Assembly (NCBI GenBank): GCA_024407725.1 | Contig: JAKSVZ010000001.1 | Location: forward strand, 61,786-93,785 | Length of the DNA stretch: 32,000 bases | Direction of reading: 5' to 3' | Source: Opitutales bacterium | GTDB taxonomy: Bacteria > Verrucomicrobiota > Verrucomicrobiia > Opitutales > UBA9783 | Shown: positions 26,320 to 30,039 of the stretch, one piece after another | Layout: every line of letters begins with the position of its first letter | How positions within the stretch are numbered: position 1 is the stretch's first letter | Program-made: the position numbers and the translations under genes | The notes under the pieces: model-generated | Databases searched by the model: none | Seen by the model: the letters and a program-made list of their open reading frames with translations, nothing else | What the model was told of the DNA's origin: nothing

Positions 26320-27969
26320 ATGTCACTCGAAAACCCTAATGTCTCAAACCTAGGCTTACAAAACCCTGTTAATAATCCACAAATTCAAGAGAGCGATAAG
26401 GCAAATGAAAATCAAAACCCAGTTGAGCAACAAACCAAATGTCAAAAAATCAAAACAGCTTTCAAAACAGCTTTCAAAGCCATTGGTAAAGGAATAGGTG
26501 CTTTAGTATTTTTCGGCGGAACTACCGCTACTGCAATGGGTATTGCCAGTATGATTACAAGTATTGTAGCGGCAGGTATTACCAGTGCATTATGTCCTAT
26601 AATACCAGTAGTATTAATAGGTATCGCTGCTGCAGGACTAGGCGGACTTTTATTTACAAAGCTGGGCGGATCAATGTCAACCTTAGTATCTTTAGGTATT
26701 ACAGCTATATTTCAAGGCATTGCTAAGGCTAAAGCAAATGGTGGAAAAGTAGACATGGGCAATCTTAATGATATAGCGAACAACACCAAAAACGTAATGG
26801 TGGATTTTACAAAAAATGAATTAAAAAACCAATACGACAATCTTGACCCAGAACTTAAACAGACGGTTGATACGATGATAGATGGTGGGAAAAATATAGC
26901 AGGGGCTATTAAAAATACGCATTCTTTAAATGACTTAATGGCTTTATGCCAAAATAAAGACTTCATGGCAAGCATGTCTAAGCTTGGTACTGAAGTGATG
27001 CAAATCAAAAAAGAACTATTGCCAAGTAAGAGTACCGAACCAAGCATACTTACCAAAGCTTTCGATAAGCTAAAAGAAGCAAAAGCACAACTAGAAACGC
27101 TTAAAAATAACGTTATCAATAGCGATTTAGGTCATACTTTACATTTAGAGGATGTTGAACAACATTTAACAATAGCCTTTCAAAACGGGAAGCTTAAGGA
27201 GGATCCTCTAGGAACTATCAAAGATACATTGGTTGAAACCGGTAGCAAGATATTAAATTCTGCAATTTCGGAAAACGCTAATATTCCCACCGACGTATTT
27301 AAGGAGATCGTTTCTAATATCACTGAAGGTAATTCAGAAGCACTTTTTAACGGTTTAGCTAATTTAGCAAAAGACATGGTTTCTAAGTCCCCAAATGATA
27401 TCAACACATATTTAAGTAGTCTCGCTGGAAACGCAAAAGTGAACATTGATAATATATTGGAGATGTATGCCAATCTTAAAGCCAATCAACCCGAATTACT
27501 CGAAAATATGCTTAACGGCGAAACCAATATTGTAAGCGCAAATAATATTCAAAAGATGTTCCAAGGCATCATTGAAAACACAGGGAAGAAAGTATATGAA
27601 CATATTTTAAAACAATGTGATATCCCGCAATTAATACAGAACATTGATAATTTCGCAGACGGTAAAACAGATGATATTGACATTGCCAATGTACAAAATC
27701 AACTACGAGTCTTAAGTGAAGCTTTATATAACATGGGGACATGGGGTCTCATTGATCGAAGAGTCTACCTTGATCCTAAAAATCCTATCCTAACAGAGGA
27801 ATTAAAAGGCAATTTGCAGACGCTCAAAAACACTTTAACAAATTTAAGCAACATCAAGAATGGAAATGTTCAAGCGTTTTATAGCTCAATAATTACAAAT
27901 AACAATGTAAACGAGGTAAATAAGTATCAAGATGCAAACTATCTATTGCAATATCTTAAGGAGATTTAA
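26320..27969 (+). CDS. Inc-like / T3S-substrate-like membrane protein, 549 aa, with a long bilobed hydrophobic domain; paralog of 28885-30039
   Basis: Polar N/Q/P-rich N-terminus without a signal peptide. A G/A/I/T-rich hydrophobic stretch spans residues ~59-135 (nt ~26494-26724) with a Pro turn LCPIIPVVLIG. Collinear C-terminal blocks are shared with the 400-aa protein. It starts 32 nt after the sigma-28 stop. Confidence 0.75.
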   Translation: MSLENPNVSNLGLQNPVNNPQIQESDKANENQNPVEQQTKCQKIKTAFKTAFKAIGKGIGALVFFGGTTATAMGIASMITSIVAAGITSALCPIIPVVLIGIAAAGLGGLLFTKLGGSMSTLVSLGITAIFQGIAKAKANGGKVDMGNLNDIANNTKNVMVDFTKNELKNQYDNLDPELKQTVDTMIDGGKNIAGAIKNTHSLNDLMALCQNKDFMASMSKLGTEVMQIKKELLPSKSTEPSILTKAFDKLKEAKAQLETLKNNVINSDLGHTLHLEDVEQHLTIAFQNGKLKEDPLGTIKDTLVETGSKILNSAISENANIPTDVFKEIVSNITEGNSEALFNGLANLAKDMVSKSPNDINTYLSSLAGNAKVNIDNILEMYANLKANQPELLENMLNGETNIVSANNIQKMFQGIIENTGKKVYEHILKQCDIPQLIQNIDNFADGKTDDIDIANVQNQLRVLSEALYNMGTWGLIDRRVYLDPKNPILTEELKGNLQTLKNTLTNLSNIKNGNVQAFYSSIITNNNVNEVNKYQDANYLLQYLKEI

Positions 27970-27977
27970 CCCAAATG

Positions 27978-28006
27978 CTGCCAAAAACAATGAAATTTAA
28001 TATAAT
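27978..28006 (+). promoter_or_regulatory. sigma-70-type promoter CTGCCA-17-TATAAT
   Basis: Perfect -10 TATAAT at 28001-28006, a 17-nt spacer and -35 CTGCCA (4/6). ATG 28016 follows 9 nt after the -10. Confidence 0.4.
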
Positions 28007-28015
28007 TTAAATACT

Positions 28016-28141
28016 ATGACGCACGATAAACAACCGAAAATCAATACCAATAGTCCTTTAAAATCGGATGAAAGCGAGATTATACACAATCTAATCTTTA
28101 GCAATTTGGATTACGATACAGACCCGATACAAAACCATTAA
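28016..28141 (+). CDS. possible 41-aa leaderless small ORF upstream of the T3S chaperone
   Basis: Below the ORF-track cut-off. Hand translation gives MTHDKQPKINTNSPLKSDESEIIHNLIFSNLDYDTDPIQNH. The ATG lies 9 nt after a TATAAT box and the stop lies 16 nt before the chaperone ATG. There is no homology evidence. Confidence 0.25.
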   Translation: MTHDKQPKINTNSPLKSDESEIIHNLIFSNLDYDTDPIQNH

Positions 28142-28157
28142 AAACGAAAGCACACGA

Positions 28158-28781
28158 ATGAATCAAAGCGCACAAAACTCTTTAGCGAACCTGTTGGCTG
28201 CTGTACAGGTCGCTAATGAAAACAACGGAAACACCGCTATAGAAGATTTCAAAGAGCAAGTTCAAAAGAAATTGCCTCTATGGGACCAATATACACGGGA
28301 TAACACCAAATTGCTCAACAAAGGAATTCAAGCCTTCAAACGGTATGACAAAAATCATCGCTTAGACTTCCTTTGGATGCGGTTAAAGAACGGCGAAAAG
28401 GTGTCCAAAAACAAAGCAATTGATGACCTCTTTAAGTTCGCAAATGACGCATTTGAGCATGAGAATTGGGATGATGCCCACGCTATGTTTAGCTTCATGG
28501 CAGCCCTATCCCCTGAGCATTATCGCATCTATTCTTACCTAGGAACCGCAACTGAAAAGTTATATGGTCCTGCCGACGCTAGCTTGTTCTATGATGCAAT
28601 AACAAAAACGTTTGAAGACCCTGAATTGCTGTTCTACGCCGCTGAATGCGAAATGCACGTACCTAATAACGAAAAGGCAAAAAATTATCTAGAACGTGCC
28701 ATTAAAGCTTTCGGAGACAAGCCGAGCAATGATATGCTTCAATTGGAAGAAGAGATGAAGGACTTGCTCAAAACCTTGTAA
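28158..28781 (+). CDS. class II type III secretion chaperone (LcrH/SycD/CesD family, TPR; Scc2/Scc3-like)
   Basis: 207 aa with three TPR-like repeats. FKFANDAFEHENWDDAHAMFSFMAALSPEHYRIYSYLGTA...FEDPELLFYAAECEMHVPNNEKAKNYLERAI matches the family signature (Y..G..D..F.AAEC). Confidence 0.8.
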   Translation: MNQSAQNSLANLLAAVQVANENNGNTAIEDFKEQVQKKLPLWDQYTRDNTKLLNKGIQAFKRYDKNHRLDFLWMRLKNGEKVSKNKAIDDLFKFANDAFEHENWDDAHAMFSFMAALSPEHYRIYSYLGTATEKLYGPADASLFYDAITKTFEDPELLFYAAECEMHVPNNEKAKNYLERAIKAFGDKPSNDMLQLEEEMKDLLKTL

Positions 28782-28804
28782 TCATCTGTAGTTTTTCCTC
28801 CTGT

Positions 28805-28847
28805 CCCTCTATCATTCCAATCGCAATGATTAGTGAATGATAGAGGG
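28805..28847 (+). repeat. 12-bp perfect inverted repeat (stem-loop) between the chaperone and the downstream gene
   Basis: ccctctatcatt (28805-28816) pairs with aatgatagaggg (28836-28847) across a 19-nt loop. The right arm contains the first in-frame ATG (28837) of the downstream ORF. Confidence 0.9.
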
Positions 28848-28884
28848 AGTTGTCTATCCAGCACCATTAAATCCTACTCCATCC

Positions 28885-30039
28885 ATGTCTAATGTAGAAA
28901 TTTCACAAGACGTACCGCTACAAGACCAATCGGTTGATAACAATAATCCATCAGGCCCAATCAATAATTCTGAAGCACAAGGTACTCAAGGTGCACGCGA
29001 ACAACAAGTATCAGGTATAAAAGCTAAACTAAATGCACTAAAAGTAGCAATAGGTGCTGCCATGAGCGCCTTTGGACTTGGCGCCATCGGAACTGCCATT
29101 GTCGGTGTCCTTTCAAGCGTCGCAGCAGTAGGTTTTGTAGCTGCCTTCACTCCCGTTGTCCCCCTATTACTCTTTGGAGCTATCGGATTATATGCAGGTA
29201 TACAGTTTATACAAAGTGGCTTGGCTAAAGAAAACACAAATAACGTAAACCAAAACACCCAAAATACCGTTCAAGAAAACAGTGTTAAGGTAGAAAAAAG
29301 CCCAGAACAAATAGAAAAAGATGGTGAAATGGCGTTCAATAGCCTATTGGATACTATTCAGAAAAAAACCACCAAAGAGGAAATTAATAAATTGTTCTCT
29401 GATGAGCAGTTTAAATCGAACCTGCATGATTTTGGTGAAAAGTTAATGGCCTCAAAAGAAAAAGTCTTACAACTTCTAGGCGACAACTATGATCCTTTAA
29501 GTGTTTTTATGAACACCTTGATGCCAGAAGCTCAATCTAAAATAGAATCATTACAAAATGCCCTCATCGAGAAAGGACTATCCTTAACGGAGTGTAAACA
29601 ACAATTAGGAGAAGCATTTACAACAGTAGGGCTCAATGGAAACCCGCTGGAAAGCATTCAAAATACCTTAATTGAAACAGGAGGTAAGATATTAAACAAC
29701 GCATTCGTAGATGGAAATACTATCGACCAAACGGTATTTGATGAACTTACCAACAATATTACAAAAGATAATAAAGAGGGACTGTTTAATAACATGCGGG
29801 AATTAGCAAGGAGAATTAATGACGATCATGAAAAGGGAACCCTCCATTACAAATTCCTAAATAACATTTTCACAGATGATATAAAACACAACTTCAACGG
29901 TATCTTTAAGATGTATACCGATATTCAAACTAATCAACCTACCTTATTCAAGGAAACCTTCGATGCACCCAATACCACTAGGGATATTAAAGATATGTAC
30001 TTCAACCTCGCTAATGAAAAGACGATGGAAGGATTTTAA
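28885..30039 (+). CDS. Inc-like / T3S-substrate-like membrane protein, 384 aa (400 aa if ATG 28837 is used), bilobed hydrophobic domain; paralog of 26320-27969
   Basis: The hydrophobic stretch VAIGAAMSAFGLGAIGTAIVGVLSSVAAVGFVAAFTPVVPLLLFGAIGLYAGIQFIQSGLA spans nt ~29044-29226. Start 28885 (MSNVEISQD) is preferred because it parallels the paralog's MSLENPNVS and lies outside the hairpin. Confidence 0.75.
   Translation: MSNVEISQDVPLQDQSVDNNNPSGPINNSEAQGTQGAREQQVSGIKAKLNALKVAIGAAMSAFGLGAIGTAIVGVLSSVAAVGFVAAFTPVVPLLLFGAIGLYAGIQFIQSGLAKENTNNVNQNTQNTVQENSVKVEKSPEQIEKDGEMAFNSLLDTIQKKTTKEEINKLFSDEQFKSNLHDFGEKLMASKEKVLQLLGDNYDPLSVFMNTLMPEAQSKIESLQNALIEKGLSLTECKQQLGEAFTTVGLNGNPLESIQNTLIETGGKILNNAFVDGNTIDQTVFDELTNNITKDNKEGLFNNMRELARRINDDHEKGTLHYKFLNNIFTDDIKHNFNGIFKMYTDIQTNQPTLFKETFDAPNTTRDIKDMYFNLANEKTMEGF

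Follow-up and report, generated by a model that had tools for sequence, protein, structure and literature searches.

A predicted class II type III secretion chaperone and its proposed partners, fast-evolving hydrophobic hairpin proteins, beside a sigma-28 gene in an Opitutales bacterium

What purpose is served by a type III secretion (T3S) chaperone whose gene lies between two genes for hydrophobic proteins, directly downstream of a sigma-28 gene, in a bacterium that is not labelled as a chlamydia? This question is raised by positions 26320 to 30039 of a stretch of 32,000 nucleotides (nt) from an Opitutales bacterium, which is referred to here as the window. The open reading frames (ORFs) of the initial annotation were recovered on the forward strand: a sigma-28 gene (25508-26287), a gene for a protein of 549 amino acids (aa; 26320-27969), a gene for a 207-aa tetratricopeptide repeat (TPR) protein (28158-28781) and a gene annotated as coding for 400 aa (28837-30039). 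The best explanation, held tentatively and with a little less confidence than an even balance would give, is that the two hydrophobic proteins are chaperone-dependent T3S cargo of the Inc/SseF type that inserts into a host membrane, with the 207-aa protein as their dedicated chaperone. Secretion, chaperone binding and membrane insertion are predictions from sequence and structural models, and the evidence for and against them is considered below.

The chaperone is the best defined element of the locus. The initial annotation had recognised an LcrH/SycD signature in the 207-aa protein, and this is borne out by sequence and by predicted fold. A TPR core (aa ~86-195), preceded by an 85-aa N-terminal extension that is conserved in relatives, matches the TIGR02552 model with an E value of 3.6e-14, but with a score that stays under the curated cutoff of this model (see below). 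When the protein was compared with PDB sequences by phmmer, PcrH, SycD and AcrH came first and the top four matches were all class II T3S chaperones, while hhalign aligned it to Yersinia LcrH (pCD1) with a probability of 89% (E 2.4e-6). The AlphaFold2 (AF2) model, with a confidence score (pLDDT) of 76-93 in the core, gave in Foldseek a list of PDB structures of which the first 24 are all class II chaperones; they include SycD (TM score 0.81, root-mean-square deviation 1.9 Å), PcrH, AcrH, IpgC and the chlamydial Scc3. A weak match to the SctY model (E 0.035) was also seen. Thus, by hidden Markov model (HMM), PDB sequence search, profile-profile comparison and modelled fold, the protein is assigned to the class II T3S chaperones.

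The two proteins whose genes flank it are paralogs, as the initial annotation had proposed on the basis of four common features. They align by BLASTP with an E value of 9e-26 (24% identity over ~410 columns; 30% over 341 residues in a local alignment), and the collinear blocks starting at nt 27202 and 29641, the polar N-termini, the bilobed hydrophobic blocks and the low GC content at third codon positions (GC3) are all present. Their genes, with GC3 values of 0.305 and 0.335, are the most AT-rich of the window; GC3 is 0.39-0.52 in genes of recognisable housekeeping function and 0.46 in both the chaperone gene and the sigma-28 gene. In the 549-aa protein, which belongs to no Pfam or NCBIfam family, aa 1-55 are polar, aa ~56-135 form the hydrophobic block, and the C-terminal domain behind it is all-helical; the two lobes span aa 74-92 and 94-112, with the turn C-P-I-I-P between them. 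The second protein, most probably 384 aa long and encoded by 28885-30039 (see below), lacks the third hydrophobic helix of the family and, at its C-terminal end, a further ~150 aa. Both proteins have an all-helical C-terminus and begin with ~55-65 polar residues (S, T, N, Q and P make up 0.48-0.52 of the first 50), and neither has a hydrophobic stretch before about residue 56 or a hydrophobic core of the Sec type. Every family member has two adjoining lobes of at least 19 residues each around a proline turn, and a bilobed domain of at least 40 aa, the mark of the Inc type, is found throughout.

The first alternative to be weighed is that these proteins are divergent hydrophobic translocators, that is, pore-forming analogs of SctE and SctB in a verrucomicrobial injectisome, which the chaperone would serve as in lcrH-yopB-yopD. 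Class II chaperones classically serve translocators (PMC9993115), the identity of the chaperone is solid, and in this genome it is flanked by two paralogous hydrophobic proteins. The lobes are also similar in hydrophobicity to those of known translocators, with crude transfer energies from -0.02 to +2.45 kcal/mol (YopB and YopD: -0.4 to +2.95), and they are less hydrophobic than the single membrane anchors of PBP2 and a pilin-like protein encoded in the same window (-1.0 and -1.25 kcal/mol). These values fit the rule of moderate hydrophobicity for T3S membrane substrates (PMC9993115). However, the hairpin starts at aa ~56-70 and has a tight turn of 1-2 residues, whereas the transmembrane segments of YopB start at aa 166 with a loop between them. 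Confident full-length homology to CopB/CopD would, according to the initial annotation, have made this an ordinary translocon. Profile searches revealed no homology to known translocators: hhalign probabilities were 1.1% against YopB and 0.4% against YopD, and the Pfam models of SseC, YopD, IpaB, IpaC, EspB or IncA gave no match in five family members, even at E<=10. In the relatives, moreover, a single hairpin gene stands by the chaperone gene and not a major/minor pair, and an identity of 36-46% between lineages where neighbours have ~90% seems high in divergence, in our judgement, for a structural pore component. The translocator explanation is therefore considered unlikely. The initial annotation had offered a divergent translocon and a chaperone-dependent Inc-like family side by side; the second of these fits the data better and the first has become weaker.

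Beyond its own clade the hairpin family has no detectable kin. An exhaustive HMMER search of 1.84 billion representative proteins, with a profile built from both paralogs, yielded four clusters, all from this clade, and returned no Salmonella protein; the 549-aa protein, used as the query of a word-indexed homolog search, matched nothing but itself. The AF2 model of the latter is all-helical and of low confidence (mean pLDDT 55, best for residues 300-549), and its Foldseek comparison with PDB, with nothing below E 0.1, is uninformative because the model is poor. The family is an orphan and is restricted to this lineage.

The gene neighbourhood of relatives provides a second line of evidence. 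Five related lineages were compared, designated L002, L003-L006, L007 (UBA3869), L010 and the more distant L016. In the first three, a common unit consists of the sigma-28 gene, a spacer of 29-30 nt, an ortholog of 536-550 aa, a small ORF of 41 aa, the chaperone gene and a gene for a leucine-rich repeat (LRR) protein. The same order is found in L010 from the hairpin ortholog onward, which is incomplete there since the contig stops short of the sigma-28 position. The chaperone is 78-96% identical between L002, L003-L006 and L007, and in these three and L010 its gene is separated from the LRR gene by ~175 nt. In L016, whose sigma-28 factor is 48% identical to that of the window, the sigma-28 gene and two extra genes are followed by genes for a protein of ~605 aa, for a chaperone of 213 aa, for the LRR protein and for a pilin-like protein. 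The chaperone of L016 is 37% identical to that of the window (E 4e-47). Its ~605-aa neighbour begins with MSISN and is polar at the N-terminus; a bilobed hairpin with the lobes FIPVVIA...IIPLIAA comes next, and the tail is helical. This protein shows no significant similarity to the hairpin family (hhalign probability 5.5%). A hairpin-protein gene thus adjoins the chaperone gene in the window, in L002 to L007, in L010 and in L016. This conserved order with a diverged cargo indicates that the pairing of hairpin protein and chaperone is old, and that the cargo evolves much faster than its partner.

The order of substrate, chaperone and substrate, to which the initial annotation had given weight, turned out to be particular to this genome, as the downstream paralog gene is absent from all five related lineages. 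This copy lies within a segment of ~1.2 kb (about 28859-30064) that has no counterpart in the relatives. Its borders are marked by TGTCTATC (28851-28858) and TATCTATT (30065-30072), a direct repeat of 8 bp in which six of the eight positions match. An origin from an insertion sequence or transposon was considered; there is neither a transposase nor a long terminal repeat, and the imperfect 8-bp repeat is the only such feature. A recent tandem duplication was considered and rejected, given that the 384-aa protein is 30% identical to the 549-aa protein and 35-37% to the orthologs of other lineages; its hairpin, too, is closer to theirs than to that of the 549-aa protein. The gene trees around the locus disagree and do not discriminate between a gain of the segment here and a loss elsewhere. 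As to the start of the gene, ATG 28837 falls within the 3' arm of a conserved RNA hairpin (28804-28848), and the form that starts at ATG 28885 begins with MSNVE, while four of the five full-length orthologs begin with MS[IL][ED] and that of L003 with MAIEN. The 384-aa form is for both reasons the likelier product.

The hairpin genes change at an extreme rate. The orthologs are 36-39% identical where the sigma factor and the products of xseA and gpsA have ~90%. In the closest pair, L003 and L007, the sigma-28 factor (98.8% aa identity, dN/dS 0.10), the chaperone (96.1%, 0.19) and the LRR protein (98.3%, 0.13) are nearly identical, and the hairpin protein has 79.2% identity with a dN/dS of 0.76 (dN 0.121, dS 0.159); its dN is 8-24 times that of all neighbours. 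The changes cluster at aa 1-30 and 120-290, and the hairpin region (aa 40-120) is almost invariant. Between L003 and L010, dS amounts to 0.11 in the LRR gene, 0.74 in the chaperone gene and 2.5 in the 41-aa ORF. It appears from this contrast that the hairpin gene, together with the 41-aa ORF and the gene for the chaperone, is exchanged between strains as a cassette. Judged by its substitutions, the hairpin gene looks like one that is engaged in host interaction.

The small ORF of the cassette deserves separate mention. It occupies 28016-28141 on the forward strand, downstream of the hairpin gene and ahead of the chaperone gene, and codes for an acidic protein of 41 aa, MTHDKQPKINTNSPLKSDESEIIHNLIFSNLDYDTDPIQNH, with no Pfam family. 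The frame is intact in the window as well as in L002, L003/L006, L007 and L010, and L016 does not have the ORF. Between L003 and L007 there are no nonsynonymous changes at a dS of 0.13, and between L003 and L010 dN/dS is 0.08, so that the ORF is under purifying selection and a real gene. Its product could be a co-chaperone or a regulator.

The position of the module behind a sigma-28 gene may point to control by this factor, and it opens another alternative: the flagellar type III apparatus would export the proteins as products of a late flagellar gene under sigma-28 control, and the TPR protein would act as an export chaperone of an unusual kind. The identification of the sigma-28 gene by the initial annotation is sound. 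Its product, 259 aa long, contains both Sigma70_r2 and r4 and matches the FliA/WhiG model TIGR02479 over its full length (E 3.2e-54), with a score of 184 bits that falls just short of the cutoff (189.6). With PRK05911, the model for chlamydial sigma-28, it reaches only 132 bits (cutoff 378). The gap of 32 nt to the hairpin gene is equally real, and 29-32 nt are found in close relatives. This spacing allows co-transcription of the two genes, and the hairpin gene may be under sigma-28 control, yet in L016 two genes intervene, and adjacency to sigma-28 is not universal. The conserved gap and the fliA-motA-motB order seen in a relative speak for flagellar export. Against it, the consensus TAAA-N14-16-CGATA has no site in the whole window, and in L016 the module is parted from fliA by the two genes just mentioned. 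The known flagellar export chaperones (FlgN, FliS, FliT), furthermore, are not TPR proteins. Export by the flagellar route is considered very unlikely.

Other signals for transcription are few. A scan for sigma-70 promoters and terminators showed no enrichment over shuffled sequences; the best site (27978-28006) is upstream of the 41-aa ORF. Directly 3' of the chaperone stop codon, on the forward strand, lies the strong RNA hairpin already mentioned (28804-28848; dG -25.2 kcal/mol, z -5.6). It has no U-tract and is kept in L002 and L003 with paired length changes on both arms, and it is a probable terminator or stabiliser at the end of the operon.

To which organism the locus belongs, and whether that organism has an injectisome, bears directly on the proposed role. 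The initial annotation had framed the locus within the Chlamydiota, which has to be abandoned. The database entries of both the 549-aa protein and the sigma factor read "MAG: ... [Opitutales bacterium]", where MAG denotes a metagenome-assembled genome, and among 120 listed sigma-28 homologs, most of which are unnamed, the named ones are Opitutales, Puniceicoccales or Verrucomicrobiota and none is chlamydial. By the labels of the depositors and the names on these homologs, the organism is not chlamydial. A scan of GTDB genomes with a chaperone profile matched a sole species representative, "Verrucomicrobia bacterium UBA3869", and a scan of JGI metagenomes found one further contig of 1.5 kb. Three coding sequences of the window, of 1650, 1584 and 1203 nt, are present with exactly these lengths as separate records L001, L008 and L011 of GCA_024500515.1 (JALNLU01...), which is not the accession of the MAG. 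One related contig comes from project PRJEB21624 (cow rumen). The window also codes for pyruvate:ferredoxin oxidoreductase and pyruvate phosphate dikinase, which suggests that the organism is an anaerobe. A search for literature on Opitutales with type III secretion systems (T3SS) or ciliates found nothing relevant.

Two contigs that were reached by way of sigma-28 homologs, one of which is labelled Opitutales, are informative in this respect. L014 (877 kb; sigma-28 47% identical) carries fliA-motA-motB and, ~8 kb on, genes for a SycN-like chaperone and a TyeA gatekeeper (18920-20777; TyeA by TIGR02511, above cutoff). L012 (sigma-28 49% identical) codes at 13862-15361 for an ATP/ADP (NTP/NDP) translocase (TIGR00769, 411 bits). 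These genes are hints of host-cell-associated lifestyles in the clade; injectisome components and a marker of energy parasitism occur in relatives, not demonstrably in this genome.

Several observations weigh against the proposal of secreted, host-directed cargo, and most of them are taken up by the third alternative, which holds that the proteins are ordinary inner-membrane hairpin proteins with both ends in the cytoplasm and a TPR partner, perhaps with a sigma-28-controlled function in motility or the envelope. No apparatus gene was found when 17 Yersinia T3SS proteins were compared by tblastn with the window and the related loci that were fetched, which is to say that no T3SS gene is seen in the accessible DNA of this lineage. 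The chaperone scores 52.6 bits against TIGR02552 (LcrH_SycD), whose curated cutoff is 104.8. An ordinary inner-membrane hairpin would also agree with the hydrophobicity values of the lobes, and lysine-rich flanks on both sides of the hairpin fit a cytoplasm-in topology. The sigma factor could simply be flagellar FliA, as FliA usually is, and in the relative L014 motAB come right after fliA. Genes for an LRR protein exported by Sec and for a pilin-like protein are among the conserved neighbours. The dN/dS of 0.76 is accompanied by a raised dS and could reflect relaxed constraint or recombination and not positive selection, and under the inner-membrane alternative the variability would be due to relaxed constraint or to selection driven by phages or competitors. 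Finally, the chaperone-binding motif P/VxLxxP is absent from all family members in a regular-expression search that recovered it in the YopB and YopD controls, although this motif is not universal among translocators (PMC9993115); the PxL/IxxP motif that SseF/SseG-type effectors have N-terminal to the transmembrane region was likewise found in no member.

The inner-membrane alternative nevertheless has difficulties of its own. PDB holds many TPR proteins, and still the 24 best structural and four best sequence matches of the chaperone were all to class II T3S chaperones; to our knowledge, no role of these chaperones outside injectisomes has been described. A domain facing the cytoplasm is hard to reconcile with a dN that exceeds the neighbours' 8-24 times, and a related verrucomicrobial contig carries the gatekeeper genes of an injectisome. 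We consider this alternative improbable, to about the same degree as a divergent translocon. Inc/SseF-like cargo remains the preferred explanation; it is supported by the linkage of hairpin protein and chaperone in close relatives and in L016, by the class II chaperone, by the Inc/SseF-type architecture with lobe energies that resemble those of YopB and YopD and agree with the rule of moderate hydrophobicity, by the host-interaction-like evolution, by the injectisome gatekeeper genes on L014 and the ATP/ADP translocase gene on L012, and by a precedent in Salmonella. There, the class II fold chaperone SscB serves the membrane effectors SseF and SseG, which are encoded in one operon with it, and keeps SseF out of the bacterial inner membrane (bioRxiv 10.64898/2026.08.13.744596; PMC9993115). 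The initial annotation overlooked this case when it stated that the locus fits neither the translocator nor the Inc scheme, and with the SscB precedent that difficulty is removed.

Under this preferred explanation, a sequence of events can be imagined. The cluster would be transcribed together with the sigma-28 gene or just after it. The chaperone would bind the nascent hairpin protein in the bacterial cytoplasm and mask the moderately hydrophobic hairpin, so that insertion into the bacterium's own inner membrane by the signal recognition particle (SRP) is avoided, and the polar N-terminus without a Sec signal would target the complex to the injectisome. After delivery into a host cell, probably a rumen protist, the protein would enter a host membrane as a hairpin whose two ends face the host cytosol, where the variable helical domain behind the hairpin may engage host factors and hence be subject to diversifying evolution. 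The 384-aa copy would be an additional cargo gene of this strain, situated directly behind the RNA hairpin at the operon end.

The surroundings of the module contain further genes. Its 5' edge is formed by a tRNA-Pro(GGG) gene (25313-25389, forward strand; ARAGORN, and Rfam RF00005 with 62 bits), 118 nt 5' of the sigma-28 gene. Just upstream of the cluster, a gene at 24343-25200 (forward strand) codes for a protein of 285 aa that has a signal peptide, carries ...GRTF at its C-terminus and resembles a beta-barrel of the outer membrane; with 46-71% identity between lineages, against ~90% for its neighbours, it is a second hypervariable gene. On the downstream side, the LRR protein of 294 aa (30174-31058, forward strand; LRR_4, E 2.6e-22) has an N-terminal hydrophobic signal of the Sec type and is encoded next to the chaperone gene in all relatives, being 40% identical in L016. 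A pilin-like (N_methyl) gene on the reverse strand (31013-31516) converges on the LRR gene, the 3' ends overlapping by 46 nt (31013-31058), and this adjacency is kept even in the distant L016.

Farther away, three orphan proteins with HExxH-like motifs and no Pfam or NCBIfam family are encoded at 10799-11893 (forward strand), 14727-16118 and 16322-17842 (both reverse strand), with GC3 values of 0.32-0.37; the latter two are paralogs (E 2e-10). The three may be secreted metalloprotease-like effectors. At 459-2436 (reverse strand), an orphan 130-aa protein is encoded directly upstream of a 527-aa protein, without a family match and with GC3 values of 0.458 and 0.364; the layout recalls that of a small chaperone gene followed by an effector gene.

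A wider picture could also be drawn, in which rumen Opitutales deliver Inc-like hairpin effectors by means of an injectisome and a class II chaperone, use for this a recombining and diversifying cassette tied to sigma-28, and live in association with host cells, possibly as intravacuolar symbionts of protists. This picture is rather doubtful at present, and less probable than its core, the chaperone-dependent cargo. If it is true, the Inc strategy is not confined to the Chlamydiae within the PVC superphylum. The bilobed hairpin of the Inc type has so far been treated as a chlamydial hallmark, and it is only with recent work on SscB that a chaperone of class II fold has been assigned to membrane effectors. 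With a conserved module of hairpin protein and class II chaperone in a verrucomicrobium of the rumen, both ideas would apply to a further PVC branch, and an unrecognised interaction between bacteria and eukaryotes in the rumen would be indicated. The combination of a hypervariable cargo, an invariant hairpin and a conserved chaperone also makes up a compact system in which to ask how chaperones recognise hydrophobic T3S cargo without the P/VxLxxP anchor.

How does the locus compare with systems that are already characterised? One close parallel is sscB-sseF-sseG of Salmonella pathogenicity island 2 (SPI-2). In both cases a class II fold TPR chaperone is linked to effectors with early hydrophobic transmembrane segments, there are two hydrophobic cargo genes for one chaperone, and the role proposed for the chaperone is to keep the hairpin from the inner membrane. 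In contrast to the Salmonella genes, the conserved cargo gene is located here upstream of the chaperone gene and the 41-aa ORF lies between them; the proteins are much longer than SseF and SseG (549 and 384 aa), have a large helical domain and no PxL/IxxP motif, and the bacterium is labelled as a verrucomicrobium. The likeness, taken from published descriptions, is one of architecture and gene linkage.

With the chlamydial Inc proteins, the hairpin proteins have in common a bilobed hydrophobic domain of ~40-80 aa near the N-terminus, placed after a polar stretch free of a Sec signal, and a helical C-terminal domain that is presumed to face the host cytosol; in both groups the genes are lineage-specific, fast-evolving and AT-rich. 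Unlike the Inc proteins, they come from a genome that is not labelled chlamydial and are not matched by the IncA Pfam model. The known Inc chaperones, such as Mcsc, moreover, are not class II TPR proteins.

The translocator operons lcrH-yopB-yopD, ipgC-ipaB-ipaC and scc2-copB-copD likewise have a class II chaperone beside hydrophobic substrates, and the chaperone is homologous to theirs by profile and fold. They differ from the locus in that neither YopB nor YopD nor any of the Pfam translocator families is homologous to its hairpin proteins, in which the hairpin is tight and lies N-proximally and not centrally; its relatives have a single substrate gene instead of a major/minor pair, and this gene precedes the chaperone gene and evolves far faster. 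A purely positional resemblance exists to YscE-YscG (PscE-PscG), where a very small conserved protein is also encoded directly upstream of a TPR chaperone, as the 41-aa protein is here. One may imagine from this layout a chaperone of two parts that serves a hydrophobic cargo, although nothing similar to the 41-aa ORF was detected and L016 lacks it, and the cargo is no needle subunit. Taken together, a class II chaperone with hydrophobic cargo is of a known kind, and what is new at this locus is its verrucomicrobial, hypervariable and orphan form.

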